Shown here in pieces: positions 12,861 through 64,000 of a stretch of DNA of 64,000 nucleotides. The stretch covers positions 425,965 through 489,964 of the forward strand of contig CALOBY010000004.1 in assembly GCA_942491685.1 (NCBI GenBank). Direction: 5' to 3'. Numbering within the stretch: position 1 is the stretch's first letter; every line of letters starts with the position of its first letter. A program made the position numbers and the translations under genes. The notes under the pieces were generated by a model, which saw nothing but the letters and a program-made list of their open reading frames with translations, did no database searches and was not told where the DNA came from. This DNA is from an uncultured Nitrospirota bacterium (GTDB lineage Bacteria; Nitrospirota; Nitrospiria; Nitrospirales; UBA8639).

Positions 12861-14045
12861 ATGCATATAACTCGACGAAATACCCGTCAAATACAGGTAG
12901 GATCGGTCAAAATTGGTGGCGGGGCACCAATTTCCGTCCAGTCTATGACCATCCCACATCCAAGGGATGTGGTGGGAACTCTTGAGCAAATTCATCGTTT
13001 GGAAGAGGCCGGTTGCGAACTCATTCGAGTGGCCGTTCCTGATATGGAAGCGGCTGATGCTCTTCCAAAAATCAAAGCGCAAATGAAGGTCCCTCTCATA
13101 GCGGATATTCACTTTGATCATCGTTTGGCTTTAAAGGCGGCGGAAGTTGTGGACTGTGTCCGTATCAATCCAGGGAATATTGGTCCATGGTGGAAAACGG
13201 AAGAGGTCATTAAAGCCGTTAATGACAATGGTATTCCACTGAGAGTGGGCGTCAATGGGGGCTCTCTTGAAAAGCCATTATTAGATAAGTATGGCTATCC
13301 CACAGCGGAAGCTTTGGCAGAGTCGGCACTCAATGCTGTTCACGCCTTAGAGGACGTGGGATTTACCAATATGAAAGTGTCGTTGAAAGCTTCTGATGTG
13401 CATATGGCCATTGATGCCTATTGGCTTTTTGCGCAGCAATCCAATTGTCCGCTTCATATTGGGATTACGGAGGCAGGCACTGCTGCGACGGGTGCCGTCA
13501 AGTCTGCGGTAGGATTGGGGTGGTTGTTGTCCCAAGGTATCGGGGACACCTTGCGCGTTTCGTTGGCCGCTGACCCAGTCGAGGAAGTCAAAGTTGGGTT
13601 TGAAATATTGAAGTCGCTGGAACTCCGCCATCGTGGAGTGAATGTCATTGCCTGTCCGACTTGTGGCCGTGTGGAAATTGATGTGGTCAAGATGGCGAAT
13701 GAACTGGAGCATCGGTTGGGGCATATTAACAATCCCATTACTGTTTCGGTGTTAGGGTGTGTGGTCAATGGGATTGGTGAAGGCAAGGAAGCCGATATTG
13801 GCATTGCGGGTGGCCAAGGTGTGGGAATTGTCTTCAAAAAGGGTAAACTCTATAAACGGGTGCCTTCCGAAGAATTAATGGATACGTTAATCGAAGAAGT
13901 CGAAGCCATGGCCAAAGAGCAAAATAGCGATGGCCAACAAGGCATTGGTTCACAACCTTCTCCTTTATTGTCCCCGCTTGGAGAATTGTCGTTATCCTCC
14001 CCTAAATCGTCCTCTCGTGAGATTCCTGTATTGCCTCTGAAGTAA
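12861..14045 (+). CDS. ispG: (E)-4-hydroxy-3-methylbut-2-enyl-diphosphate synthase (flavodoxin)
   Basis: PISVQSMT, PLIADIHF, RINPGNIG, RVGVNGGS, IACPTCGR and GCVVNGIGE ([4Fe-4S] cysteines). Confidence 0.97.
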   Translation: MHITRRNTRQIQVGSVKIGGGAPISVQSMTIPHPRDVVGTLEQIHRLEEAGCELIRVAVPDMEAADALPKIKAQMKVPLIADIHFDHRLALKAAEVVDCVRINPGNIGPWWKTEEVIKAVNDNGIPLRVGVNGGSLEKPLLDKYGYPTAEALAESALNAVHALEDVGFTNMKVSLKASDVHMAIDAYWLFAQQSNCPLHIGITEAGTAATGAVKSAVGLGWLLSQGIGDTLRVSLAADPVEEVKVGFEILKSLELRHRGVNVIACPTCGRVEIDVVKMANELEHRLGHINNPITVSVLGCVVNGIGEGKEADIGIAGGQGVGIVFKKGKLYKRVPSEELMDTLIEEVEAMAKEQNSDGQQGIGSQPSPLLSPLGELSLSSPKSSSREIPVLPLK

Positions 14046-14135
14046 TGTTTGCCGGACTTCGGAGACAGTAACAAGAGGGTACTCTCTGGTTGCAGTTGTG
14101 TAGAAGAAAAGCAACTTCGTATAATGGGTGATGAA

Positions 14136-14211
14136 GGCGCCGTACCCAAGTGGCTAAGGGAGCAGTCTGCAAAACTGCGATTCAGCGGTTCGAACCCGCT
14201 CGGCGCCTCCA
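14136..14211 (+). tRNA. tRNA-Cys (GCA)
   Basis: Acceptor stem GGCGCCG/CGGCGCC, anticodon arm GCAGT-CTGCAAA-ACTGC, GGTTCGAACCC T-arm, U73 discriminator, encoded CCA. Confidence 0.96.
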
Positions 14212-14347
14212 TTTTTTATCGAATACCAGAGAGGAAAAGAAGTCACATGGCATATAATTTTGCTATCGGGCAATTTTCTAGAACAAATGGGACTTGTCTG
14301 AGCGGTCGAAAGGAAAGCCTTGATCCTTTTTGGGGAATGAATTAACG

Positions 14348-15364
14348 ATGGCTGTACCTCTTTCGCAAATGTACACGGTGTCACAGTATGCCTTGTCGAA
14401 CCATGTTCGAGGGGTGAAGCGCTATCCGTTAGTGCTCATGTTGGAGCCCCTATTCCGGTGTAATTTAGAATGTGCGGGGTGTGGGAAAATTCAATATCCG
14501 GATCATATTCTCAATCGACGGCTGACCCCTGAGCAATGCTGGGCGGCCGCCGATGAGTGTGGAGCGCCCATTGTGAGCATTCCGGGAGGAGAGCCCCTTA
14601 TTCATCCAGAAATGCCTGCGATCGTTGAGGGGCTAGTGCAGAGAAAAAAATATGTCTATTTGTGCACCAACGCCATCCTCCTTGAGCGAAAAATTCAGGA
14701 CTATACCCCCTCCAAATATCTGACCTTTAGTATCCATATGGATGGCCTGAAGGAAGAACATGATCATGCAGTCTGTCGTGAGGGAGTCTATGATGTGGCC
14801 GTCAAAGCGATTCGTACGGCATTAGCTAAAGGGTTTCGAGTCACCACCAATACGACTCTCTTTGATGATGCCGAACCTTTACGTGTTCGTCGATTTTTCG
14901 ATGAAATGATGGAGCTGGGCGTGGAAGGTATGATGATTTCGCCAGGATACAGTTACGATAAAGCTCCTGATCAAAAAAGCTTCTTAAAGCGGGACCGAAC
15001 GCGATCGCTGTTTTCCCAGTTGTTGACACAGCGGAAGCGGCACTGGCAGTTCAATCAATCTCCCCTGTTCTTGGAGTTTCTCATGGGCAAGCGGGATTAT
15101 GAATGTACGCCATGGGGCAACCCCACGTACAATATCTTTGGCTGGCAACGCCCGTGTTATTTATTGCAGGAAGGATATGTCTCCACGTTTCGAGAATTAA
15201 TGGACGAAACCGATTGGGATCGATATGGAACCGGGCGGCATGAACAATGTCGAGATTGTATGGTGCATTGCGGCTATGAAGCTTCAGCGGTCAAGGACAC
15301 CTTCGGTTCATGGGGAGGATTTTTCGGAACTGTCCGAGCCACGCTTTTCCCCAATGCGGTCTAA
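14348..15364 (+). CDS. hpnH: Adenosylhopane synthase (hopanoid radical SAM protein)
   Basis: YPLVLMLEPLFRCNLECAGCGKI, SIPGGEPLIHP, ECTPWGNPT and CRDCMVHCGYEASAV are HpnH motifs. Confidence 0.95.
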   Translation: MAVPLSQMYTVSQYALSNHVRGVKRYPLVLMLEPLFRCNLECAGCGKIQYPDHILNRRLTPEQCWAAADECGAPIVSIPGGEPLIHPEMPAIVEGLVQRKKYVYLCTNAILLERKIQDYTPSKYLTFSIHMDGLKEEHDHAVCREGVYDVAVKAIRTALAKGFRVTTNTTLFDDAEPLRVRRFFDEMMELGVEGMMISPGYSYDKAPDQKSFLKRDRTRSLFSQLLTQRKRHWQFNQSPLFLEFLMGKRDYECTPWGNPTYNIFGWQRPCYLLQEGYVSTFRELMDETDWDRYGTGRHEQCRDCMVHCGYEASAVKDTFGSWGGFFGTVRATLFPNAV

Positions 15365-16697: not shown

Positions 16698-18383
16698 TTG
16701 AAAACCTTACATCGAAGTATATGGATGGTCTTAGGCTTGCTCATTGGTGGGGCAGCGATAGCGTATGGGCAGGAGGTTCCTGCCCCACCGGTTGATTTTC
16801 CCTATGCGGGAAATCGTACAGCCGTGTGGGTCGTCGCGAATCTCCACATCTTATTTGCTGCCTTTATATTGGGGGCCCCTATATTTGCCGTTGTGGCGGA
16901 ATGGCTAGGGTATAAAAACAACGATCCAAAGTATGATCGTCTGGCCAAGGAAGTGATTAAGGTTACCGTCATTCTCTATAGTATGACCGCATTGACTGGG
17001 GGATTGTTTATCTTTGTCCTTTTGGGCACATATCCGACCTTTTCAACGTGGTTGATTCAGCATTTTTTCCTCGTGTTTGCGGTCATCTACCCTCTGCTAT
17101 TTATCCTCGAAACCATAATCCTCTATACCTACTTCTATTCCTGGGATTCTATGAAAGGTTCGTTAAAGGGCCGTCATATTGCCTTAGGAATTCTTTTGAA
17201 CATCGTTGGAACGGTCACGTTATTTGTCATTGATGGCCCCACTGCCTTTATGAACACTCCAGCCAAGGCCGCAGAAGGGGTGTCCCTTGTTGAGTTTGTC
17301 ACGAATGCAGGTTTATGGGACAAAATGGCCAACTATAGTTGGATGCCGCTTAACCTGCACCGGTTGGTCGGGAATGTCACGTTTGGAGGATTTATCGCCG
17401 GGCTGATTGCGGCCTATATGTATATGAGGTCCAAGACAGATGAAGAGCGATCCTATTATGACTGGATGGGGTTCGTGGGCAATATGATTGGAGTGGGAGC
17501 GCTGTTGTTGCTCCCATTTATGGGTTACCTCCTTGCTTACGAGCTTTGTGACTATGATGCCTCAATTTGTCCCTATATGATGGCCGACCAGTTGTCGATG
17601 TTCTTTGAAATGCAGGGCGCGATGATTGGGCTCATCTTTCTTGCCAGTAATTATTATATTTGGTTAAGCCTTAAACGCATTGAAGGTGTTGAGGAGATAC
17701 GAATATCCGGATTTGTGGCTCTTGCGGTGCTGGTCATGCCAGCCGTGATGGGTATGGCCTGGAAGATGTTCCCTCCTCCTGAGTGGCAATCTCTTATTTT
17801 CCTAGCGGGAACTATCTTGGTTCCTGTTATTTTAGGACGAATTCCAGGGTTGAGTAACTTCACCGTTTCGGCCTTCACCATGGTAAAAGTAGGGTTTCTT
17901 ATGATTGTGGTGGCTGATGCTATTTGGATGACGCCCCATGGCTTTGTGGCCACGCAGGGGTTGGCGACTCATGAGGTGGAACTCCCAGAGTGGGCTCAGG
18001 AGTTGGCGCTCATGCCCGCAAAAAATGCCGCAGCCTTTACCTTGGTGTTTCTCACAATCGTCAATTACATTATGTACAATCGTGCTATTAAAAGGGGCAC
18101 GATCATTTGGGGAAAGATCGATTTCGCTTCACAATTCGTCCTGATTTTCCTGGCATTCAGCGCAATTTGGACGATGGGTTTGATGGGAACGGTTCGGTCG
18201 CTCACCAGAAAATATTTTCATGTCTATAACCTTGTGCAAGATTTCACTCCAGAAGCGTTTACGCCTACCTTGTCCTATTCGGCGTGGTGGATCACAGGAG
18301 TGACGATTGTATTTTATGCTGTGGTCAGTTTTGCAATCCTGGTCACGCTTAAACCGGCAAGTGCAAAGGCTGAGGCGCCGTAA
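16698..18383 (+). CDS. Cytochrome bd-like oxidase subunit I homologue (copy 1)
   Basis: CydA-like pattern ANLHILFAAF...YDRLAKE...NLHRLVGN with many TM helices; no cydB adjacent. Confidence 0.82.
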   Translation: MKTLHRSIWMVLGLLIGGAAIAYGQEVPAPPVDFPYAGNRTAVWVVANLHILFAAFILGAPIFAVVAEWLGYKNNDPKYDRLAKEVIKVTVILYSMTALTGGLFIFVLLGTYPTFSTWLIQHFFLVFAVIYPLLFILETIILYTYFYSWDSMKGSLKGRHIALGILLNIVGTVTLFVIDGPTAFMNTPAKAAEGVSLVEFVTNAGLWDKMANYSWMPLNLHRLVGNVTFGGFIAGLIAAYMYMRSKTDEERSYYDWMGFVGNMIGVGALLLLPFMGYLLAYELCDYDASICPYMMADQLSMFFEMQGAMIGLIFLASNYYIWLSLKRIEGVEEIRISGFVALAVLVMPAVMGMAWKMFPPPEWQSLIFLAGTILVPVILGRIPGLSNFTVSAFTMVKVGFLMIVVADAIWMTPHGFVATQGLATHEVELPEWAQELALMPAKNAAAFTLVFLTIVNYIMYNRAIKRGTIIWGKIDFASQFVLIFLAFSAIWTMGLMGTVRSLTRKYFHVYNLVQDFTPEAFTPTLSYSAWWITGVTIVFYAVVSFAILVTLKPASAKAEAP

Positions 18384-22365: not shown

Positions 22366-24249
22366 GTGATGAGATCGGCCAACCGAATAGAACAATCGAC
22401 CATTAAAAATTTTCTGGGGAAAATGCCAACTATCTTTAAGTGGGTAAGCTTCCTTTCGGTGTTGTTGCTTCCGGTGATCGCGATGGCTGCCGGGGCGGAA
22501 ACGAAAGCAATGTCGGTGGAATATCGGGATGTTCCCGGAATTGGCAGTCGGAATCTTGTTTGGGTTGTCGCGCAACAACATCTTCTCTTGGCGGGATTCG
22601 TCCTGGGGGTTCCGATTTTTGGTTGGGTGTGCGAGTTGGTTGGATGGAAAACAAAAGAAGCCCGTTATGACAAATTAGCCAAAGAGTTTACTAAACTCCT
22701 GACCTCGGCATATGCCACCACCGCGTTGTTTGGAGGAATTCTCCTGTTCTTGTTGATTGGGCTCTATCCCAAATTGATGGCCTATCTCACTGATATGTTT
22801 TTCCCATCTTTTCTCGTCTATTGCCTATTGTTTTTAGCTGAAACCGCTACCCTCTACATGTATTGGTACGGGTGGGATTATATGCAGGGGAATAAGAAGG
22901 TCTTTCACTTATTTTTGGGATTCCTTCTGAACTTATTTGCCATTGGAATTATGATCGTTCCTAATTCTTGGGCCACCTTCCAAGCAAGTCCAGTGGTGGT
23001 AGGGGATGGGGATGCTTGGACTCGAGCCTGGATGGCCATGCAGAACCCCACGTGGTGGCCGGTTAATATTCATCGTCTCATTGCCAATGTGGTGCTCGGT
23101 GGGTTTATCGTCGGGGCGTATGCAGGAATTCGTTACCTATTGGCTGTTTCTCAGGAAGAGCGAGAGCATTACGATTGGATGGGATATGTCGGGAACTTTA
23201 TCGGGGTATTTGGCATGCTCCCTCTCCCATTCGCTGGATATTGGTTGATGCGGGAGGTGTATCAATACAATCAGCAGATGGGGATTACCCTCATGGGTGG
23301 TTTCCTTGCATGGTTGTTTATTCTTCAGGCCATGCTTATCGGCGTACTATTTCTTGGGGCAAATTATTATTTTTGGATGGGAATTACCTATCGTATACCC
23401 GGGTCTGAAAATTCGTACAAGAAGCCGATTATGGCTATGCTCGTCGTCCTCTTATTATGTTTAGGTGTTTGGATGACTCCGCATTCCTTGGTGGCGAGCT
23501 TAGCGGAAGCGCAAAAAATGGGAGGCACACATCATCCTTTACTCGGGGTTTTTGGGGTCATGTCTGCCAAAATGACCGTCTCCAATTTAATGATCCTTGT
23601 CACCTTCATGAGTTTTATTATGTATTGGCGCGCGGGGAAGCAAGAAACGGCTGGTTGGGCTAAAGCCGCTAAGGCCATTATGGGTGCTCTGCTTTTTGTT
23701 GGAGGTGTTGCGGTAATTGTCCTTGGGGTGTGGGGCTATTTTGTTCCGGCAATTATCCGGATCAATTATTTCTCCGTCGCACAGGTATTGATCGTCTTAT
23801 TTATTATGGTGACGTTTACACCTTTGACAGCGTTGTTAATGAAAAGTGCCAAAACGACGACTGAAATGGTGTGGGGAAAAATGCCTATTCGTGCGGGCTA
23901 CAGTCTAGTACTCAATGCGGTAATGGTTATTCTGCTGATGTCTTTAATGGGTTACGCCAGATCTTCTTCACGGGTTCATTGGCATATTTATGGTGTGATG
24001 CGTGACACTTCTGAATATGCATTTTCACCGGCATTAGGGTATGCGGCTGCGTTTATGTCCTTAAATACCTTTGTCTATTGCTTGTTGGTGGCTTTTATTT
24101 TCTGGGTTGCGACATTAGGTGATAAAGCCAAAGCGCAACAGGCCAAAGTGCCCTTGTCTGATGTTCCCGGTGGTGCACCGGCTATGGCTGGTGGATCGCC
24201 AAGTTCAGTGGAAAATATTGGGTCCGGATCTCTGGAAAACCATAGGTGA
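22366..24249 (+). CDS. Cytochrome bd-like oxidase subunit I homologue (copy 2, extra histidines)
   Basis: AQQHLLLAGF, YDKLAKE, NIHRLIAN, WMTPH, GGTHHP and RVHWHIYG; paralogous to 16698-18383. The true start may be about 57 nt downstream (MPTIFKW). Confidence 0.82.
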   Translation: MMRSANRIEQSTIKNFLGKMPTIFKWVSFLSVLLLPVIAMAAGAETKAMSVEYRDVPGIGSRNLVWVVAQQHLLLAGFVLGVPIFGWVCELVGWKTKEARYDKLAKEFTKLLTSAYATTALFGGILLFLLIGLYPKLMAYLTDMFFPSFLVYCLLFLAETATLYMYWYGWDYMQGNKKVFHLFLGFLLNLFAIGIMIVPNSWATFQASPVVVGDGDAWTRAWMAMQNPTWWPVNIHRLIANVVLGGFIVGAYAGIRYLLAVSQEEREHYDWMGYVGNFIGVFGMLPLPFAGYWLMREVYQYNQQMGITLMGGFLAWLFILQAMLIGVLFLGANYYFWMGITYRIPGSENSYKKPIMAMLVVLLLCLGVWMTPHSLVASLAEAQKMGGTHHPLLGVFGVMSAKMTVSNLMILVTFMSFIMYWRAGKQETAGWAKAAKAIMGALLFVGGVAVIVLGVWGYFVPAIIRINYFSVAQVLIVLFIMVTFTPLTALLMKSAKTTTEMVWGKMPIRAGYSLVLNAVMVILLMSLMGYARSSSRVHWHIYGVMRDTSEYAFSPALGYAAAFMSLNTFVYCLLVAFIFWVATLGDKAKAQQAKVPLSDVPGGAPAMAGGSPSSVENIGSGSLENHR

Positions 24250-51052: not shown

Positions 51053-52330
51053 TTAACTGCCCTCAATTCTCACGCCGATGGTTCCGGCGTAGTTGTCGAA
51101 TTGGCTGTGGCCAACCAAGGCCTTAAAGTTCACGAAGGGTTGAATCCCATTAGGCAGGACCAATACGGTGCCCATACCTAAAGTGAAAAAATTTCTATCA
51201 GGTTTATCGTTGTTAAAGCTAAACTTAGTTGGGTTCGCTCGGTTGTCCTCGATAAATTGGACGTCAATAGATCGTTGATCATTCTCAAACTCATGAATAT
51301 AGTCTGCCGTGGCTTGCGGAACCCAGACACCATAGGACGTATTGATTGCCATGGTTCCCTGAAGGCCAATGGTGGTTTGGAGGGATTTGACAGTTTGGTC
51401 GTCAAACTCTAGGCCGATGCCTCCGCCGCCACTTTCTTTATAATCACCAATAGAATTACGGGAATAGTTCACTCCCACCCGTGGACCAACGGTAATATTT
51501 CCGATTATGTGGTCATAGCCTGTCAACGCTTGGATTTGAAATTCATTTCCATCTGAATCGCTACGGGCATTGCCCCCGAATGGAGTGCCGCCAAGTGTCA
51601 CGTATTGGACCTGTCTTTTTACATCGTAGTTATGCCTGGAATACCCTAGACTGACATCAACAAACATGGCTGGTATAGGCATGACGGAACCATAAGCCAG
51701 GAAGCCATAGGAATCGGTGTCGAAATTTCCCCCGCCGTCAAAGTCTCCATCGCGATTTGTATAATTGAAGGCGCCGCCGGCTAAGAACATGTTATTAAAT
51801 CGATAGTCTGCCCCGACCGTTGCACCCAACACCGTTGAATCAAACCCATCCCCAAATGTTGTTCTATCCCTATTCAACGCCTCGAAATTTCCAGAAACAA
51901 AGAGGCCTAAACCGCTCGGCAAATTAATAGTCGCTTGATTCCCAGTCGATTCCCCTTCCAGCCGGTCTAGTCTTCGGTTTTCTACCGTGGCTCCTAATGA
52001 TTGAGCGGATCCCGTTCCCCCGCCAGCAGAACCTCCAGGTCCAGATGGAATATCGTTGCAGAGGGCAGTCAGGTTAGGGCCCAAACCAGGAACGGCACCT
52101 CCACCGGTCAGATTTTGACATTGGAGATCAAGTTGATTAGCTATCGCTTGGTCCAGGGTAGTTGCGGCAAGGGTGGAATTCGGCAAACAAAAAGTGGCAG
52201 CTAACAGGGTGGTTCCTAAGAAACCATATGCCCCGGTAATTTTGATCAAGGGACGGCAAGAGGTTGAGAACCGAGAACCCTTTTCCCTTGAAGAAAAATC
52301 ATCTAGCGGGTTGTCATGCATCGTATCCAT
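51053..52330 (-). CDS. Autotransporter beta-domain outer-membrane protein with very short passenger
   Basis: GGAGG RBS before ATG 52330, long signal peptide, a passenger with two Cys, then a barrel (TVGADYRF, GPRVGVNY, WVPQATADYIHEF, C-terminal GTIGVRI). Confidence 0.82.
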   Translation of the reverse strand: MDTMHDNPLDDFSSREKGSRFSTSCRPLIKITGAYGFLGTTLLAATFCLPNSTLAATTLDQAIANQLDLQCQNLTGGGAVPGLGPNLTALCNDIPSGPGGSAGGGTGSAQSLGATVENRRLDRLEGESTGNQATINLPSGLGLFVSGNFEALNRDRTTFGDGFDSTVLGATVGADYRFNNMFLAGGAFNYTNRDGDFDGGGNFDTDSYGFLAYGSVMPIPAMFVDVSLGYSRHNYDVKRQVQYVTLGGTPFGGNARSDSDGNEFQIQALTGYDHIIGNITVGPRVGVNYSRNSIGDYKESGGGGIGLEFDDQTVKSLQTTIGLQGTMAINTSYGVWVPQATADYIHEFENDQRSIDVQFIEDNRANPTKFSFNNDKPDRNFFTLGMGTVLVLPNGIQPFVNFKALVGHSQFDNYAGTIGVRIEGS

Positions 52331-52514
52331 TTCACACCTCCCCAGAATACGGACCAAATAATAGTAGTAAAATTCCTTACGGTTGAAAAAGACACTGATT
52401 ATAAAGCCTGATAGGCCTGGTTTCAATATAAAAGAGACCACCAGTGTTGATCCGTTAAGTGCTGACTCAGTACACTGTCATGCATAAGTGATTGTAAAGA
52501 TTCACTCAATACCT

Positions 52515-54755
52515 ATGGCTCCCACATTTTCCCCAAAGAATATCTTCGTCGTTCTTTTCCTTGCCATGTTGAATGCTGCCTTACTGTCTTCATGTAGAAC
52601 GAATTCTGGCCAAGATTCTCTCACTGGAGGGGGAAATTCCGATGTAAGGTCTTCCGCAACTGTTGGGGGAGGGGATGATTTTCTGGCTGTGGATTGCCTA
52701 CTGCCAGGCCAAATGCGACGTCTTGGGACGCGTGTGACGTTTTTGACCGCCCGCCGCCCAGCACGAACGACAGCCGAAGACTGCGCCATACGTGGCGGCG
52801 AATACACTCTCCATGATCGGGCTGACTATCAGACTTCACTGAAGTTGTGGCTTGATGCGGCTCAAGAAGGCGATGCGAAAGCTCAATATTACGTAGGTAC
52901 CATTTATGAGAAAGGGCCGAAAGGCATACCGGATTACGCTTTGGCTGCAGTCTGGTATCAAAAAGCTGCCGAACAGGACCATCGACAGGCGGCGATGAAC
53001 TTGGGCCGCCTCTATGAAAAAGGGTTGGGCGTACCCCACAATGCCTCAACAGCCTTTCAATGGTATGGCCGGGCGTCAGGGTTAGGGGAATCAGGTTTAT
53101 CGATGCTGATGAATGTAGAAGCGAGTCAACGCATCCAGCATTTGGAAAAAGCTATGGGAGAGAAGGAAAAAGAGATACTTCGATTGCGAGCACATATTAA
53201 TGAGATAACCCAAGAGCTTAGTCAATTGCGGAATCAACTTCGCCAGCAATCATCAGAGGCCGAAATCGAGCATCAAAAGTTACATACGTTGGAAGAGGAA
53301 TATCAAAAGATTCAGGTTCAGGTACAGGCTGAGCGAGAACAACATGCACGAGATCAAGAGGAACTTCATCAACTCAAAAGTCTTCTGACGAAAAAAACCG
53401 GTTCGGCGGAAAGCATGCGTAATCGAATTCAGGTATTAGAAGTGTCTTTGGCGCAGTCTAACCAGGATGCTAGGCGGGAACAAATTCAAAAGGCCATGCA
53501 AGCGATACAGGTAAAACTCGATCGACAAAAAGTGATTGTGAACGAGCGGAATCAGGAAGTCGAGCGACTGCACCAGCATATTGCCTTATTGGAAAAAGAA
53601 GCGGATGAACGGAACCAGGAATTGAGGCAGACTCCTAGCGTTGATTTAGGATTTGAAGGACCGACGATAGAAATCGTGGATCCCCCGATGCCCCCGACTA
53701 GGGGTATCAATGTGGTCGGGGACGTGCCCATTATTCCAGCTGTGGTTGGCGTCCCACGTCACCTTGCCGGACGGGTCATTGCTCCCGCAGGCTTGCGTAC
53801 TTTCACCATAAACGGGCATGCCGTTCAAGTGGATGATCATGGTATTTTCGCGATGGATTTTCCTCCAATTTCTGAAGCCCATGGGACCCTACCGGTTCAA
53901 ATCATGGCAGTCGATATCCAAAATAAACATGCGGCCAAGAAAATAACCTTGGTGGCTGGTAAAACGGTGGTCGCGGCGCCGGAAATTTCCGACGAAGATA
54001 TGGAAGTTTTTGGGAATTACTATGCGTTGGTCATCGGCAACGATAAATATGAGCATTGGAATCCACTCAGAAATGCAATATCCGATGCTCAGGCAGTGGC
54101 TGAAGTCCTTGGAACCCGTTATGGATTCAAGGTGACCTTTCTGAAAAATGCTACGCGGAGAGATATATTGAAGGGGCTCAACAACTTTAGAAAAACACTT
54201 AAAGAAAATGACAACCTCCTAGTCTACTATGCCGGACATGGGCATTTGGAAAAAGATATCGATCGAGGTTATTGGATTCCTGTGGATGCGGAAATCGATG
54301 ATACCTCTCAATGGATTCTCACTCCCAGTATTACAGATCTTCTGGAGCTGATGTCTGCGAAGCACATACTTGTCGTCGCAGATTCCTGCTTTGCCGGGAA
54401 AATGACCCGGTCGAGTCTGGCGCAACTGCGCCCTGGTCTCTCGGAAGAGAAGCGAATGAAAATGCTCAAGACTGTGGCAAAAAAACGAGTGCGCACGGCG
54501 TTGACTTCTGGAGGGGAACATCCGGTCTTAGATGTTGGAGAAGGAGGACATTCGGTGTTTACAGGAGCCTTCATCACTGTCCTCGGTGAAAATCAAGCCA
54601 TCCTGGAGACCGAACGCCTGTTCCTTGCTATTCGCACCAGAGTGGTGAGTGCTGCGGGAGAATTTAAAATGGAACAAATTCCCACCTATTGGCCTATCCA
54701 ATTTGCTGGCCATGAGAGCCTCGGAGATTTCATCTTCATCCCACAACAAAGCTAG
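52515..54755 (+). CDS. Lipoprotein with Sel1-like repeats, coiled coil and C-terminal caspase-like (peptidase C14) domain
   Basis: Lipobox LSS-C; Sel1 repeats (AQYYVGTIYEKG, AAMNLGRLYEKGLG); YALVIGNDKY; catalytic YYAGHG and VADSCFAG. Confidence 0.88.
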   Translation: MAPTFSPKNIFVVLFLAMLNAALLSSCRTNSGQDSLTGGGNSDVRSSATVGGGDDFLAVDCLLPGQMRRLGTRVTFLTARRPARTTAEDCAIRGGEYTLHDRADYQTSLKLWLDAAQEGDAKAQYYVGTIYEKGPKGIPDYALAAVWYQKAAEQDHRQAAMNLGRLYEKGLGVPHNASTAFQWYGRASGLGESGLSMLMNVEASQRIQHLEKAMGEKEKEILRLRAHINEITQELSQLRNQLRQQSSEAEIEHQKLHTLEEEYQKIQVQVQAEREQHARDQEELHQLKSLLTKKTGSAESMRNRIQVLEVSLAQSNQDARREQIQKAMQAIQVKLDRQKVIVNERNQEVERLHQHIALLEKEADERNQELRQTPSVDLGFEGPTIEIVDPPMPPTRGINVVGDVPIIPAVVGVPRHLAGRVIAPAGLRTFTINGHAVQVDDHGIFAMDFPPISEAHGTLPVQIMAVDIQNKHAAKKITLVAGKTVVAAPEISDEDMEVFGNYYALVIGNDKYEHWNPLRNAISDAQAVAEVLGTRYGFKVTFLKNATRRDILKGLNNFRKTLKENDNLLVYYAGHGHLEKDIDRGYWIPVDAEIDDTSQWILTPSITDLLELMSAKHILVVADSCFAGKMTRSSLAQLRPGLSEEKRMKMLKTVAKKRVRTALTSGGEHPVLDVGEGGHSVFTGAFITVLGENQAILETERLFLAIRTRVVSAAGEFKMEQIPTYWPIQFAGHESLGDFIFIPQQS

Positions 54756-58010: not shown

Positions 58011-58973
58011 TTACTTATCCCAGAGGTCACACACGAACCTGGTGCTGTCGATATAAATGCCACGCTTCCCGCGAAAGGCTTTGCCGACTTTTCCGGAAGG
58101 GCAGAAAAAGTTACCTGAGGGGGAGCTACTAAAATTTCCAATTACTTTGCATCTGCCCCCGGTACAACTTACGCTTTCCGAATAAATTGTCGCTTTTTGG
58201 CTTTGATTCCATTGACTACAGAATAAAAGAATTCCATTGACGAACTGGCCGGAAAAACCCTTGACTCCCTGAACGACCTTGCCATTTTCACAACGACCAA
58301 CTTGAGCAATTCCCCCACTACCCCCAACCGGTCCTCTGGTGAATTCATTTCCCAAAGCCCCGGTTTGAGAGTTTACTTGTTGACAAATGATTCCCAGAGC
58401 ATCCAACCACATTCCGCTTTTGTAAATTCCCCCAACCATGACGGAGCCACTGCCACAATCGAGATTATACGAATAGTTACCTCCTCCCCCTCCAAAAAGG
58501 GGGGTGGAGTATTCCGTCGAGGCGGTCCTTTGGGTGGAGGAAAGCGTTTTTAGGCGTTGAATGGTGAAAAGCGAAAGAGTGCCTCTGGAGCGAATACCAC
58601 TATAGGTGCCGATCGCTTCCAACCGCTTTCCATCAGGAATCAACAAGGCAAGGTGGTAGGTGTCAGGTTGGTCTCCCTCAGCCGAAATCGCCAAAGGAGC
58701 GGTGAGCGATTCTTCATGGGTCGCCGACTGCGCTTCCAAGAGCAACGAATCCACCGCCTGTCCTTCGCTCGGGGTGACCCGCAGCCATTTGTCAGCCGCA
58801 CCCACGGCATAGGTACCGGCGTCGAGCACAATGTTGCTGCCTTCGGCATTCAGAAAATGCACCGGTTGATCCAAAGTGATGCTGGTGTCGGCTAGGGCTG
58901 TGGGAATGTCAGCCAGAAACCACGCCAGGAACGCGCTGGCCAGAGACAAGTAAAAGGGAAGTGTCTGTCGCAT
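58011..58973 (-). CDS. Secreted protein: shared N-terminal domain plus Cys-containing beta-prism (jacalin/VMO-I-like) domain
   Basis: Signal peptide, LDQPVHFL...GTYSGIRSRG, then three repeats of G.GG...C..G.V..G...G..(LD/VN/ID)...C. Confidence 0.8.
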   Translation of the reverse strand: MRQTLPFYLSLASAFLAWFLADIPTALADTSITLDQPVHFLNAEGSNIVLDAGTYAVGAADKWLRVTPSEGQAVDSLLLEAQSATHEESLTAPLAISAEGDQPDTYHLALLIPDGKRLEAIGTYSGIRSRGTLSLFTIQRLKTLSSTQRTASTEYSTPLFGGGGGNYSYNLDCGSGSVMVGGIYKSGMWLDALGIICQQVNSQTGALGNEFTRGPVGGSGGIAQVGRCENGKVVQGVKGFSGQFVNGILLFCSQWNQSQKATIYSESVSCTGGRCKVIGNFSSSPSGNFFCPSGKVGKAFRGKRGIYIDSTRFVCDLWDK

Positions 58974-59022: not shown

Positions 59023-59946
59023 TTATTTCATGTTCTCAATAATCTTTCTCTGCGCATCCGAGTTTTTCTTCATGATCTGAGACATGGCTTGCTGTGCTTG
59101 AGAAAATTTGGACATGGCCGTTTGAAGTTGGAAATTCAAGTCCTTCGAGGCATTTTCTAAGGTCTGTAATTCCTGTTTCAACCGCTGCGTCAACTGTTGC
59201 CATTGGGTTTTTCGTTGTTGGTTGCGTTCCTGTGCCAACTTTTTTTGTGTGTCTTGTAAGTGTTGACGAATTTTTTGTTTTTTGGTGTTCCCGTCTTGGA
59301 TCTTTGCTCGATAGAACTGTAAATCTTTTTGAGTGGCTAAATATGATTGCCGTAAAACTTCAACCATGAGGGCATTGGCATTGAGCGAATGAGGAAGCTG
59401 ATTCTTCGATTGAGTTGGCTGTTTGCCTTGTCCCACCAGTTTATTCCATTCCTTTTGTAAGGAGGATTTCGGCGCCTTCTTTGTCAGTGATTTAGCGAAT
59501 GATTTCACCTGTTTCCTAAAGGGCGGCTTGAAGGTTTTTCTTAGATTGTGAAGGCTCATCCCACGCGTTTGAATGCCGCTATACGAGCCCATCGCCTCTA
59601 GTCCGTTATGGTCTGGAATCGCCAAAGCCAGATAGACTCCTTCGTCGGGAATCGGAATGGCCATTCCTATTGGCAACTCGACTTCGTCAGGAAACGGGGT
59701 AGGCTGCGCTTGTAGAGAAATAGATGTTTGGCCATCCTGAGCCTGGAGCCGTAACTCGTCTCCCTGTCTTTCTAGTTCGTACGTTCCGGGTGGAACCACG
59801 ACATCATTGCCTTCTGGAGTCAGGAAGTGAACCGCCTGGTCCAGCATGATCGCCATCGAAGATTCTGATGCCAGCGCCGGTAATGTTCCAAGAAGAAATG
59901 TTACGAATAAGAGTCCAAGTAATTTGATCGAGTATTTCTTCGTCAT
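59023..59946 (-). CDS. Secreted protein: shared N-terminal domain plus coiled-coil C-terminus
   Basis: GAGG RBS at ATG 59946, signal peptide, LDQAVHFL...GSYSGIQTRG, Q/K-rich coiled coil ending ...MSQIMKKNSDAQRKIIENMK. Confidence 0.8.
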   Translation of the reverse strand: MTKKYSIKLLGLLFVTFLLGTLPALASESSMAIMLDQAVHFLTPEGNDVVVPPGTYELERQGDELRLQAQDGQTSISLQAQPTPFPDEVELPIGMAIPIPDEGVYLALAIPDHNGLEAMGSYSGIQTRGMSLHNLRKTFKPPFRKQVKSFAKSLTKKAPKSSLQKEWNKLVGQGKQPTQSKNQLPHSLNANALMVEVLRQSYLATQKDLQFYRAKIQDGNTKKQKIRQHLQDTQKKLAQERNQQRKTQWQQLTQRLKQELQTLENASKDLNFQLQTAMSKFSQAQQAMSQIMKKNSDAQRKIIENMK

Positions 59947-59969: not shown

Positions 59970-61301
59970 TTAATATCCTATGGGGGTTGGTATTTGTCCG
60001 CCTGCGCAGGATCCGCCTATGACAGGACCTACCGGCACGAACGGGGGTGCAAAGGAGGGTACGGGCCCAGAACCCATGACGTTCATCAACTGGCATCCAC
60101 TGAGACAGGTTGCATGTCGTCCACCGATATCCGTGGCGAACCCCTGGACGGCAATCTTGGCTTCTTTGTCGCTCGATGGGACGCCTAATCGAGATAAAAC
60201 CTTTTTAGCTAAAAGGGGTGGCGTCATCGCTTTCGTTCCAGCGGAGGGCATCGACGAAAGAGGAAATGGAACGTTTGGCATGGGAGGAGCCTGTGCTCCA
60301 GGAAAGGCTGTAAATGCCGGATACATGGGAAGGCCAGGGATGATAACGTTCTTCGCCCAAAGGTTCCACGTTTCTTTGAAAGCCTGGTCCCAACCATCAG
60401 CTACGGATTTAGACGCGCCTGCCGCCTTCAACGCTTTTGATATTTTGCCCTGAAACGAGTATCGGCTTTTCAGGACACCGGGTGTTCCGATGGCCGATAC
60501 CGCCATGACCTTACAATAGTTTCTATCGATATAGGCCTGACTGAGCCAGGTTGCTGCCTCCGCTCGGGCTGCAGCAATGGCCGTTTGACTCCACAGAGTC
60601 CATTTCCCGGATCCGCCGGTCACGGTTTGTCTGGCTTTCTGAATTCCACTCTTCACATTTGATACGACCTGGCTGGTTTTTTTCTCAACGGCTTTCTTGA
60701 CTTCAAGCGCGGCTTTTCTGGAATTCTGAAGACCTTGTTTCGCGGATGATGCCGCCCTTTGGGTATGTTGTTGTGCTTGTTTTGTCGCTTTTTGTGCGGA
60801 ACTTTTGGCTTGTGAAGCGGCCTTCTTTGCCGTGGACTTGGCTTTCTTATGGGCTTGTTTAGCCTTTTTCTTCACGTTGTTCACGGCATTGTTAAAAAAT
60901 CCCCTCTGTCTAATGCCACTAAAGGTTCCTGTTGATTCCAAACTTTCACCGTTTGGCAGTAACAAAATGATGTGGTGAAGATCCTGACTATCGTCATCGG
61001 TACCTGAGACTGACAAGGCCAACGGCTCTGGTAGTTCTAGCTCATGTGTGCCTTTGTTGGCCTCAATGAGGACGGCGTCATGACGTTCACCGGACATCAG
61101 GCGAATCCATTCTTCAGCCGGCTCAATGCCATACGTACCGGCCTTGACTACTAGATCACTCCCATCGGGTGCCAAAAAATGTACAGGGATGTCCAGTTTA
61201 ATCGTGGTAAGAGGATCCCGTAATGAGGCTGCTGATTTTCCCGTGGTGCTGAACAAAGCGAACGTTACCAAAATAGTAGAAAGAAATTTGAATTTTTTCA
61301 T
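59970..61301 (-). CDS. Secreted protein: shared N-terminal domain, basic helical linker and Pro-rich unknown C-terminal domain
   Basis: GAGG RBS at ATG 61301, signal peptide, LDIPVHFL...GTFSGIRQRG, K/A/Q linker, C-terminal PGLPMYPAF...GPVPSFAPPFVPVGPVIGG. Confidence 0.8.
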   Translation of the reverse strand: MKKFKFLSTILVTFALFSTTGKSAASLRDPLTTIKLDIPVHFLAPDGSDLVVKAGTYGIEPAEEWIRLMSGERHDAVLIEANKGTHELELPEPLALSVSGTDDDSQDLHHIILLLPNGESLESTGTFSGIRQRGFFNNAVNNVKKKAKQAHKKAKSTAKKAASQAKSSAQKATKQAQQHTQRAASSAKQGLQNSRKAALEVKKAVEKKTSQVVSNVKSGIQKARQTVTGGSGKWTLWSQTAIAAARAEAATWLSQAYIDRNYCKVMAVSAIGTPGVLKSRYSFQGKISKALKAAGASKSVADGWDQAFKETWNLWAKNVIIPGLPMYPAFTAFPGAQAPPMPNVPFPLSSMPSAGTKAMTPPLLAKKVLSRLGVPSSDKEAKIAVQGFATDIGGRHATCLSGCQLMNVMGSGPVPSFAPPFVPVGPVIGGSCAGGQIPTPIGY

Positions 61302-63365
61302 GGTTGTGACCTCTTGGCTCATACGGACATAAGGATAAGGTGTGTTTCAGCGCACCGCAGCTTCTGCGAGCTGCACGACACTTTGGTTGTAACGCTCCAA
61401 GGCTTTCCGAGTATCCTCCGTATGGGTGCTGGCTAATATGACGATTTGTTGCTTAGAGGGTAAATACCGCAAAAGAGCCGACAATGGTCCCGCATGCCGT
61501 TGAATGGCCGTATACGTTCGGTTGTTTTTCAAGGCATCTTTGGCCTCATCGATGACCTTGCCGTACGCATAATGGGCTCCGGCTTTCACGCTGCCGACAA
61601 TGATATTGTTGATAGCCAATTTCCAAATGACGTCGGGTGTGATTTTTGCCAGGCCGGACACAATCCCCCCGGCTTCAGGGACGAGACCAGCCACACTCTG
61701 GACGACCGTGCCCACGGTTTGTTCCCCAAAATCCAACACTTCGACAGCAGAGCGGATGAGGAAACTCCCCCCACCTGGCAGTTCACTATCCAGATACTTT
61801 TTCCCCACGACACGAAGGATTTCCATGCCGATATCGATATAGAGGGATTCCGTCCAAGGAGTATTAGGATCCAGCGCGGTTCTGACGGCATTGAGGGCCT
61901 GCCCCCGCTGAGAGGGGTTATTCAACGTTTTAGTGAGGTGTTCAATTTGACTGGCGGCCGCATAGAGATCGCGTGGGTTCAATAACTGGTCTGCCAGGAC
62001 CGCGTTCTTAATGTCAAGGATATCCCCCAACCCTGGAACCACATCACCGAGCAAGGCTTTTGTATCATCTTGCGTGAATCCTCGACTGATAATAGGGCTC
62101 TTGGAAAAGAAACGATCGTCGGAAAAATACTGTTGGGGATTAATGCCTCTTGACTGAATTTTTGCTTGGGCAATTTCTTGAGGCGTCAGGGAAAGGACAG
62201 CTGCCATTAGATCGCCAAGCTGCTTGCTTAAACTGCCAAACAAAATGGGGGCCACTTGATTGTCAAAGATACGTTTCCCTTGGGTGATGGTGGTCTGCTG
62301 GATCTGACCAGATTTTCTCTGAAAGGCCTGGAGATGTGGACGGACAAACTGCATCAGACATCGCCCCCCGGGGCCCTTTTGTGCGATTTTTTCAATGGAC
62401 CGAAAAGCCATGGCGATGACCTGCGGGCCTTGTGGTGCTGAACGAGACGGGTTCCGAATGAACTGCAGTTGTTCCGACATGATGTCGCTAAAACTCTGCT
62501 CCCATTGCTGCATGATGTCCTGGAAGAGTTGGTTCGCAAATTCTGGAGGATTGCTCGTGAATTGTTGAACCATCTGTGGAATGTTGGCCGAGGGTTTTCC
62601 CGATGACTGGGCCAGGCAGGCAAATAAGGGTTCCAAACTGAGTTTTCTAACGGCTTCTAGCGTTTGGATTTCACTTTGGAGTGTGGCGACCAGGGGATTA
62701 TTTTTGATTTGATTCATCCCTGCCTGGGCACTGCTTTGGACATTTCCTGCCACCTGCTTGGCGGTATTCTCCACTTGACGCTTAGCGTGAAGGGCCGCGT
62801 TTCTGGCTGTTTGAAATCCAGCTTTTGCTGTTGAAACTGCCTGCTGCGTTCCTTTTCGTACTTGTTTCTGTGCGTTTCGTGCAGCTTTTTGTGCTTGAGA
62901 GGCCGCCTTCTGTGTTTCTTGCTGAGCGTGTTTCGTTGCCTTTTGTGCGGTGCTTTGGGCCTGAGAAACAGTTTTCCTGGCTGTAGATCGGGCTTTCTTA
63001 TAGGCTTGATTCGTCTGTTTTTTAACGTTATTGATGGCCTGGTCAAAGAACCCCCGAGGTCGGATCCCACTGTAAGTCCCCGTTGATTCTAAGCTCTTAC
63101 CGTTTGGGAGTAAGAGGATGAGGTGATGGCGGTCTCGGCTATCATCTTGAGTATCTGCCACTGACAAGACGAGTGCATCTGGGAGCTCTAACTCATGTTT
63201 GCCGGCCTTAGTTTCAATGAGGAAGGATTCATGACGAATCCCTGGTACCAACCGAAGCCAATCTTCTGCAGCTTCAACCGTATAGGTTCCTGTTGGGATG
63301 ACCTGAGAACTGCCATCTGCCCCAATAAAATGGATCGGTTTGTCAATAGTGATTGACGTCAGTGG
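60600..63365 (-). repeat. Paralogous duplicated segment (shared domain plus K/A/Q linker) in genes 59970-61301 and 61347-63455
   Basis: The two N-terminal domains are 66/106 identical by hand alignment. The linkers align (FF.NA.NNVKK...QA.KKA.STA.K..SQA.S.AQKATK.AQQ.TQ.AAS), and DNA similarity is visible between ~60780-61070 and ~62930-63230. Confidence 0.85.
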
Positions 63366-63455
63366 ATCGGTGATTGTTGCCAAACATACGCCCGATAACA
63401 TCAAGGCTGAGACCAGAGAACACAAGAATGTATAAATCCACTGAGATCGCTTCAT
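61347..63455 (-). CDS. Secreted protein: shared N-terminal domain, basic helical linker and large helical C-terminal domain
   Basis: AGAGGAG RBS, signal peptide, IDKPIHFI...GTYSGIRPRG, K/A/Q linker, then about 470 aa of mostly helical sequence. Confidence 0.82.
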   Translation of the reverse strand: MKRSQWIYTFLCSLVSALMLSGVCLATITDPLTSITIDKPIHFIGADGSSQVIPTGTYTVEAAEDWLRLVPGIRHESFLIETKAGKHELELPDALVLSVADTQDDSRDRHHLILLLPNGKSLESTGTYSGIRPRGFFDQAINNVKKQTNQAYKKARSTARKTVSQAQSTAQKATKHAQQETQKAASQAQKAARNAQKQVRKGTQQAVSTAKAGFQTARNAALHAKRQVENTAKQVAGNVQSSAQAGMNQIKNNPLVATLQSEIQTLEAVRKLSLEPLFACLAQSSGKPSANIPQMVQQFTSNPPEFANQLFQDIMQQWEQSFSDIMSEQLQFIRNPSRSAPQGPQVIAMAFRSIEKIAQKGPGGRCLMQFVRPHLQAFQRKSGQIQQTTITQGKRIFDNQVAPILFGSLSKQLGDLMAAVLSLTPQEIAQAKIQSRGINPQQYFSDDRFFSKSPIISRGFTQDDTKALLGDVVPGLGDILDIKNAVLADQLLNPRDLYAAASQIEHLTKTLNNPSQRGQALNAVRTALDPNTPWTESLYIDIGMEILRVVGKKYLDSELPGGGSFLIRSAVEVLDFGEQTVGTVVQSVAGLVPEAGGIVSGLAKITPDVIWKLAINNIIVGSVKAGAHYAYGKVIDEAKDALKNNRTYTAIQRHAGPLSALLRYLPSKQQIVILASTHTEDTRKALERYNQSVVQLAEAAVR

Positions 63456-63500: not shown

Positions 63501-64000
63501 TTAAGGGACAAATACACTTGTGCTTCCAGAAACCACCTTTCCTCCAGACACTGAACTGGTCACATGCGCCACCGATTTGGTGCCATCATTGAGTTTAATT
63601 TGCGGAGCTTTGAGCTTTAGAGTTCCTGCCCCTTCTGCGGCGACATCTTTTCCTCCTTTAAAGGAAAGGTCCTTTCCACTTTCTAACTCAAAGTCATCTC
63701 CTGCGGTAATCACCAAATCTTGGGCGGATGTAATGGTGAGGTCTTTAGCAGTATTGATTGTCAGAGTTGGAGCCTGAATGGTGGTCGAATTTGCAGAAAC
63801 TTGGACAACGGATCTGAGGAGATTTACCTGGGACTGTAGAATCTGAACCTGTTTTTTGAGGGGCATGACTTGTTTGTTCTGGGCTTGTAGGGCACCGACC
63901 TGTTGTTTTAATGATGAAATTTGTTGGTAAAGGTATTCTGGGGTAATTTGCAATTTCTGGACGTTGCTCGGTGGTTGTTGCATTGGCGGTTTTTGTGGCT
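63501..64000 (-). CDS. Coiled-coil plus gp5/gpV-like beta-helix spike protein (5' end probably outside window)
   Basis: The frame stays open to the window edge (..PQKPP-MQQPP). Heptad coiled coil, ~8-residue repeats (TINTAKDL/TITSAQDL/VITAGDDF/ELESGKDL/SFKGGKDV), then IKLNDG..VAHV...SGS..VF. Confidence 0.75.
   Translation of the reverse strand, partial: PQKPPMQQPPSNVQKLQITPEYLYQQISSLKQQVGALQAQNKQVMPLKKQVQILQSQVNLLRSVVQVSANSTTIQAPTLTINTAKDLTITSAQDLVITAGDDFELESGKDLSFKGGKDVAAEGAGTLKLKAPQIKLNDGTKSVAHVTSSVSGGKVVSGSTSVFVP

Follow-up and report, generated by a model that had tools for sequence, protein, structure and literature searches.

needleB, a candidate self-tipped needle protein in a Nitrospirales gene cluster of exported phage-tail-like proteins

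The stretch of 64,000 nucleotides (nt) analyzed here (64 kb, hereafter the window) comes from an uncultured Nitrospirota bacterium of the order Nitrospirales (contig CALOBY010000004.1), and its last 500 nt hold most of a minus-strand gene that we call needleB. We consider it probable that needleB encodes a free-standing homotrimeric needle which forms its own tip and which belongs to an undescribed, sheath-less, phage-tail-like system exported by the general secretory (Sec) and twin-arginine translocation (Tat) pathways. Sequence comparison shows which domains and export signals are present and how the genes are arranged, and from this we infer a trimer, a cone-shaped end, a docking site and a possible piercing role. 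needleB arranges known modules in a new way, and the surrounding cluster may constitute an apparatus of a new kind. An initial annotation, made from the window alone, had described the open reading frame (ORF) as a free-standing beta-helix protein of the gp5/VgrG type with a tip segment. This description holds, as domain scans of the 194-amino-acid (aa) protein found neither a gp27-like head (Phage_GPD) nor an OB-fold (Phage_base_V), and its matches are of the DUF2345 type. All sequences compared are from metagenome-assembled genomes. The locus L001 is the same contig extended past the window edge, the genomes of relatives were covered up to 10 kb around the genes of interest, and the names needleA and needleB were coined in this analysis.

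Results

needleB is a conserved gene for a small exported protein

Translation of the minus strand from 63501 to 63998 gave exactly the peptide quoted in the initial annotation, including LYQQISSLKQQVGALQAQ and LQSQVNLLRS. As stated there, the frame stays open as far as the window edge, with no stop codon and with PQKPP preceding an internal Met. Extending the sequence past position 64000 in L001 located the true start codon 85 nt beyond the edge, with a GGAGA Shine-Dalgarno sequence 7 nt upstream of it. These 85 nt encode a signal peptide (MKKISLPLTIVIVLSQISLAIA/AE, where the slash marks the predicted cleavage) and the start of a linker. The residues hidden beyond the edge number 29, of which 22 form the signal peptide, and the full protein of 194 aa is 100% identical to one already on record (P0001). 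A complete VgrG or gpV running off the window was ruled out, since merely 29 residues were missing and the protein has no head or OB-fold.

About 40 homologue clusters were found in Nitrospirota, with the same length and layout (173-194 aa, 45-63% identity). Out of 38 homologues examined, 37 have a hydrophobic N-terminus followed by AxA/A[DE]P at positions 21-23. The site is of the signal peptidase I type and there is no lipobox cysteine. This pattern establishes, as far as sequence can, that needleB carries a cleavable signal peptide. The initial annotation had wondered whether the unseen N-terminus was a signal peptide or a shared domain; the cleavage site bears out the former. The hydrophobicity of the coiled coil described below has a period of 3.5 residues (p ~0.02, modest, above chance), the beta region shows harmonics of 8 (periods 4 and 8/3, p ~0.01), and on the family profile the period of 8 itself is detected (z 3.4, p 0.01). 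We take needleB to be a real gene because of the conservation of its family, which is stronger evidence than this periodicity. Promoter and terminator scans gave no more hits than expected from shuffled sequence.

needleB combines a trimer-type coiled coil with a VgrG-type beta-helix

The order of parts in needleB is a Sec signal peptide, a P/Q-rich linker, a trimer-type coiled coil, about eight octads and a C-terminal tip (Table 1). The coiled coil begins with an N-cap, ITPEYL, that is invariant across the family. In the AlphaFold2 (AF2) model of the monomer, residues 49-93 form one confident helix, with a predicted local distance difference test score (pLDDT) of ~87, and the weak matches of this part are all to trimeric coiled coils, namely Lpp, the SP-D neck and TolA_bind_tri. 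This copy and P0002 carry a 17-residue, proline-containing insertion within the coiled coil (QNKQVMPLKKQVQILQS) which is not present in the other ~36 homologues and which resembles a local duplication of the LQxQV motif.

The octads cited in the initial annotation, TINTAKDL, TITSAQDL, VITAGDDF, ELESGKDL, SFKGGKDV and AAEGAGTL, are present in the minus-strand translation. They can equally be written in another register (LTINTAKD, LTITSAQD, LVITAGDD, FELESGKD, LSFKGGKD and VAAEGAGT), after which the chain continues with IKLNDGTKSVAHVTSSVSGGKVVSGSTSVFVP to the stop codon, its C-terminal end reading IKLNDG..VAHVTSSV..SGSTSVFVP. Six clean octads with alternating hydrophobic positions occupy residues 108-155. 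The Pfam DUF2345 model matches 38 out of 38 family members, with a best E-value of 1.9e-7. When the needleB profile was compared with the Protein Data Bank (PDB), its beta-helix part matched only spike beta-helices, these being VgrG (8gra, E 9e-4), phage Gp5, Afp8, Pvc8, AlgoCIS and the spike of the Anabaena contractile injection system (CIS). A custom needleB hidden Markov model (HMM) also matched the beta-helices of long-form VgrGs at residues ~495-560 (E 1e-7 to 1e-11). Judged by these matches, the needleB beta-helix appears to be a homologue of the proximal part of VgrG needles, which is of the DUF2345 type. AF2 modelled residues 94-160 with a pLDDT of 82-92 as an extended chain without intrachain strands, the appearance that a chain taken from an intertwined trimer would have.

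The tip resembles a single PAAR repeat

To characterize the tip we relied on its relatives. A profile of the beta-helix plus tip, run against 1.84 billion representative proteins (E <=1e-3, matches clustered at 50% identity), gave 341 clusters, including about 80 small exported proteins with the module at their extreme C-terminus. Many of the relatives' tips read NxGxKPAARVGD/S..GG.I..GS.TV, and the tip of the window protein (TKSVAHVTSSVSGGKVVSGSTSVF) aligns in register with the PAAR repeat sequence (..G.kPaArvGD.v..GG.i..GS.tV..). A profile built from the tips of 66 relatives, A4, matched 4jiv_D (6.8e-7), SalCis10, the PAAR tip of a Salmonella CIS (9rce_c, 9.5e-7), and 4jiw_D (2.1e-6) in the PDB. 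It also matches Tse5 and Tre23, and it aligns to single repeats of three-repeat PAAR proteins. Pfam PAAR_motif (PF05488) was matched by 22 of the 66 tips and any other family by three at most. In one relative, P0265, a VgrG core, DUF2345 and the same tip (GTKPAARVGD) stand in one chain. The tips of the homologues in L028, L029 and L026, searched against Pfam at E <=10, gave no PAAR match, and the PAAR link is visible solely with the family-wide tip profile. At the level of the family, these profile matches identify the tip as a single PAAR repeat. Each chain carries one repeat at its extreme C-terminus and so is not a three-repeat monomer.

The initial annotation had likened this end to a spike apex. 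An Apex of the gpV type, defined in the paper on the P2 spike by its HxH iron cage, was rejected: the last 40 residues contain no HxH, and the lone His (in AHV) is not conserved in the family. The segment is a real tip, and the profile matches to PAAR structures make it one of the PAAR type with one repeat per chain.

Table 1 Features of the needleB locus and of related loci. Positions are those of the window unless a locus is named.
Feature	Position	Strand	Content or basis
needleB gene, 3' 500 nt	63501..64000	-	codons 30-194 and stop (63501-63503)
needleB P/Q-rich linker, mature N-terminus, residues 23-46	63948..64000	-	cut by window edge
needleB coiled coil, residues 47-94	63804..63947	-	heptad periodicity; AF2 helix; weak trimeric coiled-coil matches
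needleB VgrG/DUF2345-type beta-helix, residues 95-159, ~8 octads	63609..63803	-	DUF2345, profile and HMM matches
needleB C-terminal tip, residues 160-194 (APQIKLNDGTKSVAHVTSSVSGGKVVSGSTSVFVP), one degenerate PAAR-like repeat	63504..63608	-	family tip profile
Tandem tube protein, 390 aa	L001 8804-9976 (~64110-65282, past window edge)	-	Tat signal, two Phage_T4_gp19 domains
needleA, 213 aa	L001 8079-8720, past window edge; two genes upstream of needleB		signal peptide, short coiled coil, Gp5_trimer_C
702-aa exported protein	61347..63455	-	signal peptide, shared N-domain, A/Q/K-rich linker, conserved C-domain
443-aa exported protein	59970..61301	-	shared N-domain, variable C-terminal part
307-aa exported protein	59023..59946	-	shared N-domain, coiled-coil-rich C-terminal part
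320-aa exported protein	58011..58973	-	shared N-domain, Cys-rich C-domain, weakly jacalin/griffithsin-like
Short-form VgrG, 537 aa	56331..57944	-	Sec signal, Phage_GPD, OB-fold, ~4 beta-helix strands, Pro/Arg-rich tail
CxxCxxCC (PF03692) genes	L006 20238-20531; L009 13206-13907; L028 8863-9588; L029 8943-9668		

Tube, hub and needle proteins of the cluster bear export signals

The gene upstream of needleB encodes the tandem tube protein, whose stop codon lies 24 nt before the needleB start codon. Its Tat motif is SRRDFLTK, and RRxF[LF] is found in 46 of 70 tube homologues. The structures closest to the AF2 model of the tube protein (core pLDDT >90) are trimeric tandem tube proteins, T5 pb6, DT57C and P74-26, followed by the single-domain tubes of extracellular CIS (eCIS), T4 gp19 and Hcp. 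A tube gene followed by needleB was found at nine distinct loci from three lineages. In Nitrospirales the gene next downstream of needleB always encodes a protein with the N-terminal domain shared by several products of the cluster, and in the more distant loci L009, L028 and L029 Hcps with signal peptides join the cluster.

Sec signals are present on VgrG, Hcp, needleA and needleB and a Tat signal on the tube protein, and they are conserved across divergent orthologues. The signal peptide of the window VgrG (MKTKIFWILRLTALVLGLPLNVLA/A) is retained in orthologues of only 46-65% identity, and practically every full-length protein of its clade (at least 41% identity) has one. Such a peptide is missing from all 12 canonical VgrGs compared, whose identity to the clade is 35% or less. 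The idea of a cytoplasmic spike of a type VI secretion system (T6SS) is contradicted by these signals on the spike, tube and needle proteins of the cluster. Sheath, baseplate, TssJLM, ClpV and tape measure genes were seen neither in the window nor in the flanks of the related loci examined; TssBC, TssEFGK, TssJLM and ClpV were likewise missing from the 10-kb flanks of L001, L006, L008, L009, L028 and L029, and no Pfam family of eCIS or tailocin parts (sheath, gp25/gp6-like baseplate, tape measure, terminator/cap) was matched at any locus. A phage or prophage origin was rejected, as neither IMG/VR (2.9 million viral contigs) nor INPHARED (50,697 phage records) contains relatives.

Proposed assembly of needleB

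We propose that after export the coiled coil would nucleate a needleB homotrimer whose chains wind around each other as a triple beta-helix of about 4-5 nm, and that the three single PAAR repeats would then close the needle into a cone. The product would be a free-standing needle with its own sharp tip. The N-terminal coiled coil would most likely dock in the ring formed by the Tat-exported tandem tube protein. A trimer with two tube domains per chain would be a pseudo-hexameric ring, such as the gp27/VgrG head provides for gp5, and a trimeric needle with a coiled coil at its N-terminus could sit in it. Tube protein and needleB could in this way form a second hub-plus-needle spike, independent of VgrG and comparable to gp27 with gp5 or to PdpA with VgrG in Francisella, and needleA would relate to the short VgrG. 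The shared-N-domain proteins encoded next to it on the downstream side are possible cargo of needleB. More tentatively, the cluster as a whole could be an undescribed sheath-less apparatus derived from phage tails or the T6SS. Its components would be VgrG, Hcp, the tandem tube, needles of two kinds and proteins that share an N-terminal loading domain, and each would leave the cytoplasm by Sec or Tat before assembly. needleB would then represent a new class of spike with a three-chain PAAR tip, present in Nitrospirales and, as a variant with Hcp and full-length VgrG, in other uncultured lineages.

Several observations weigh against needleB being a PAAR-tipped needle of such a system. In the window protein the tip is degenerate, with KSVAHVTS where relatives have KPAARVGD; on its own it gave no PAAR match in Pfam even at E <=10, and its pLDDT in the AF2 model is below 50. 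Against Pfam DUF2345 (PF10106), needleB reaches 25.7 bits (E 1e-5) where the gathering score is 30.7, and the repetitive nature of the beta-helix makes the register behind the assignment to a proximal part soft. Foldseek found no match to the monomer model in the PDB, as expected for a single chain of an intertwined trimer. Of the two outcomes that the initial annotation had named as refuting it, a non-beta-helical fold and a complete VgrG or gpV, neither was observed, the prediction for the monomer being uninformative on the fold. About half of the needleB-bearing Nitrospirales loci (L004, L016, L018 and L012) have neither a tube gene nor a VgrG gene within 10 kb, and a gammaproteobacterial needleB copy stands alone among housekeeping genes. 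No energy source or outer-membrane route is obvious for a spike assembled outside the cytoplasm. Finally, two metatranscriptome contigs of 151 nt, from one sediment sample and an oligo-dT library, match the gene of the 702-aa protein at 62312-62703 (98-99% identity), which is too little to call that gene expressed; none falls on the needleB ORF, though this is not evidence either way.

needleA rather than needleB matches the needle missing from VgrG

The initial annotation correctly noted a VgrG-like gene without a long beta-helix 5.5 kb from needleB; four ORFs lie between them. The closest VgrG clade (at least 59% identity) is 534-541 aa long, and the members of its sister clade (611-709 aa) do have a DUF2345 beta-helix, ending in ...GSKI(T/S)QN. 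Compared with a 698-aa relative, the window VgrG shows 49% identity as far as residue ~522, at which point it ends. From this layout it was proposed that needleB is the missing part, a detached needle and apex docked on the OB-fold/beta-prism end of the truncated VgrG. We regard such a split spike as unlikely, despite several points in its favor. The window VgrG is of the short kind, the needleB beta-helix finds its best match in the very region of VgrG (~495-560) where the short form ends and starts with the motif found at its stop, P0265 proves that VgrG core, beta-helix and tip can be joined in one chain, no separate PAAR gene was seen in the cluster, and the needle-only "VgrG" of Francisella works with a separate hub.

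These points are outweighed in our view by needleA, a protein that passes the Pfam threshold for Gp5_trimer_C (57 bits). Over positions ~18-137 out of 137, its HMM is colinear with the closing stretch of ~130 residues in long VgrGs (E as low as 1e-19) and in a canonical T6SS VgrG (7e-23). This HMM has no match in the short VgrGs. needleA stands as a gene of its own only where the locus has a short VgrG; in L009, L028 and L029 it forms part of VgrG. Because it matches the VgrG C-terminus colinearly and is free only where VgrG is short, needleA looks, on this comparison, like a fission product, the beta-helix absent from the short VgrG having been split into an exported gene of its own. The needleB HMM, in contrast, matches VgrGs with its beta-helix part alone, and the tip has no counterpart there. 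needleB homologues, 32-39% identical and with the same tip, also lie beside full-length VgrGs in L028 (337 and 270 aa) and L029 (256 aa), and other copies have no VgrG within 10 kb (L004, L016, L018 and L026). Since needleB occurs both beside complete VgrGs and without any, we read it as a separate conserved component and not as a lost VgrG needle. In addition, the 48-residue coiled coil ahead of the helix would make an end-to-end continuation of VgrG sterically awkward, and the end of the short VgrG is itself a conserved motif, found also in the unrelated orphan short form P0192.

Other readings of needleB

A secreted or surface-attached trimeric fibre, that is an adhesin-like stalk which presents or anchors the lectin-like protein encoded downstream and pierces nothing, the PAAR-like end serving as a folding cap, would account for part of the data. 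The only invariant neighbor in Nitrospirales is the downstream shared-N-domain protein, often with a jacalin/griffithsin-like C-domain, and orphan pairs of needleB with such a lectin occur without tube or VgrG. The lone gammaproteobacterial copy, the lack of an energy source for piercing and the presence of the same module at the end of long fibre-like proteins (e.g. P0309 and P0358) would also fit a stalk. However, both modules of needleB derive from membrane-piercing spikes and its linkage to tube and VgrG genes is conserved in three lineages, so that we consider a passive fibre rather improbable.

A periplasmic coiled-coil protein of the Lpp or CpoB ("TolA-binding protein") type with an incidental beta-rich tail is not credible: the Joint Genome Institute labels two homologues as TolA-binding protein and there are weak matches to LPP, TolA_bind_tri and Lpp structures, yet these matches span the coiled coil only (E 0.01 or worse), the beta-helix and tip are the most conserved part of the family, the lipobox cysteine is missing, and the gene context is phage-tail-like and not that of tol-pal. 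That needleB is no gene at all, being a chance ORF or the antisense shadow of an 85-aa ORF that overlaps it on the opposite strand (63520-63777), is refuted by the ~40 clusters that conserve its sequence, length, signal peptide and operon position, and by its strong Shine-Dalgarno sequence.

Discussion

Comparison with known spikes and tails

Our preferred reading, a self-tipped needle in an exported system, can be set against several known systems. With T4 gp5 and gp5.4, and with VgrG and PAAR of the T6SS (4JIV/4JIW), needleB shares the octad-repeat beta-helix sequence, a PAAR-type tip and a presumed membrane-piercing role. It differs in joining needle and tip in one 194-aa chain with one PAAR repeat, where those systems use a separate three-repeat monomer, in lacking a gp27 head or OB-fold, so that trimerisation would presumably rely on the N-terminal coiled coil, and in bearing a Sec signal, whereas gp5, VgrG and PAAR assemble in the cytoplasm. 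As a system the T6SS is further distinguished by its sheath, baseplate, membrane complex and ClpV, none of which is found at the locus, while the spike and tube proteins here have signal peptides.

The small homotrimeric tail needle of P22, gp26, has a long coiled coil and a short triple beta-helix, plugs the channel with its N-terminus and penetrates the envelope. No sequence similarity between gp26 and needleB was detected, and gp26 has neither a PAAR-like tip nor a signal peptide. The trimeric spikes of P2 (gpV) and phi92 build their tip from their own three chains, as we infer for needleB, which in turn has no HxH iron cage, no N-terminal OB-fold and no viral relatives that we could find. 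The VgrG of Francisella (164 aa) acts with PdpA and offers a similar layout, a needle-only protein without gp27 head or OB-fold whose hub is encoded separately. The match of needleB to its model (NCBIfam NF041249, 19.4 bits, E 8e-4) is nevertheless far below the cut-off of 100 bits. The Francisella protein is cytoplasmic and belongs to a sheathed T6SS, and the candidate hub here is the Tat-exported tandem tube and not PdpA.

Non-contractile tails and F-type tailocins, with T5 pb6 and the tail tube protein of P74-26, resemble the cluster in the modelled double tube domain and in the combination of tube, hub, central needles and lectin-like proteins without a sheath. Tape measure, terminator, head and lysis genes were not seen in the cluster. 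Phage tails and tailocins also assemble in the cytoplasm and leave by lysis, whereas every phage-tail-like part of this cluster bears a Sec or Tat signal.

Implications

VgrG, Hcp, tail-tube and PAAR modules are known as cytoplasmic parts of contractile machines. Their presence with conserved Sec or Tat signals, and with no sheath, baseplate or ATPase, raises the question of how a tail-like spike and tube are built in the periplasm or on the surface. Possible purposes include adhesion, crossing of the outer membrane and attack on neighboring cells. As Nitrospira are key nitrifiers, a surface weapon or adhesin would bear on biofilm and wastewater interactions. needleB would moreover provide a sequence link between monomeric three-repeat PAAR proteins and three-chain tips, a relation so far merely suggested, for the gpV Apex, in the P2 spike paper, where PAAR was considered possibly homologous to Apex. 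needleA, next door, offers a clean example of a VgrG needle split into an exported gene. In a full-text literature search, neither exported VgrG, Hcp or tube proteins nor a PAAR needle with a single repeat turned up; subscription papers lay largely outside its coverage and the result is not proof of absence.

Neighboring genes and further observations

The four exported proteins encoded between 58011 and 63455 have in common a domain of ~105 aa that follows the signal peptide and ends in SGIRxRG. Its pattern is ..HF..DG..G.Y..LP.G..LE..G..SGIRxRG, and the C-terminal parts are unrelated to each other. The 702-aa protein adjoins needleB on the downstream side and its C-domain recurs in distant versions of the cluster. 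PDB sequence searches returned nothing for this protein or for the shared N-domain, and no internal transmembrane segments or glycine zippers were seen in the downstream proteins. The basic end of the shared N-domain, RxRG, could be a processing site, and peptidase genes (caspase, C1 and trypsin) recur near clusters with this domain. The C-terminal half of the 320-aa protein has 8 Cys and GGxGG motifs, its likeness to griffithsin/jacalin lectins being weak (E ~0.01-0.07); in related loci its paralogues are multiplied and paired with orphan needle genes. In L006 a 273-aa shared-N-domain protein (13862-14683) ends in a coiled coil, a short beta-helix and SYTPGAGNIW, the coiled-coil/beta-helix module thus being fused to the shared N-domain as well.

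At related loci, a protein of ~240 aa of the CxxCxxCC family (PF03692) without a signal peptide repeatedly adjoins the exported VgrG, usually between Hcp and VgrG. The match of the VgrG of the Nitrospiraceae locus L023 (18210-18797) is confined to residues 1-109 and 436-521 of the query; this VgrG is apparently internally deleted and decayed, in a locus where needle, tube and cargo genes are intact. Upstream of the needle genes, at a distance of a few kb, DUF928 proteins are encoded in L006 (1973-3211), L004 (8385-9524) and L001 (7212-7475, a fragment), and the L004 protein seems from tblastn to bear the shared N-domain. One long-form cluster only, L028, contains a gene of the CsgG family, the curli secretion channel (782-1393), which could offer a possible outer-membrane route.

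In the window the cluster is flanked by a minus-strand gene for a protein with an autotransporter beta-domain (51053-52441) and a plus-strand gene (52488-54755) whose 755-aa product combines Sel1 repeats with a long coiled coil and a caspase domain (Peptidase_C14). Related clusters in L004 and L028 have genes with caspase domains nearby, too. Elsewhere the window is plain chromosome with housekeeping genes, among them those for DXP synthase, cytochrome bd-like oxidases and a histidine kinase. Two divergent paralogues of the cytochrome bd-like oxidase subunit I, both on the plus strand (16698-18383 and 22366-24249), taken together with the source names given for the homologues, fit a Nitrospirales chromosome.

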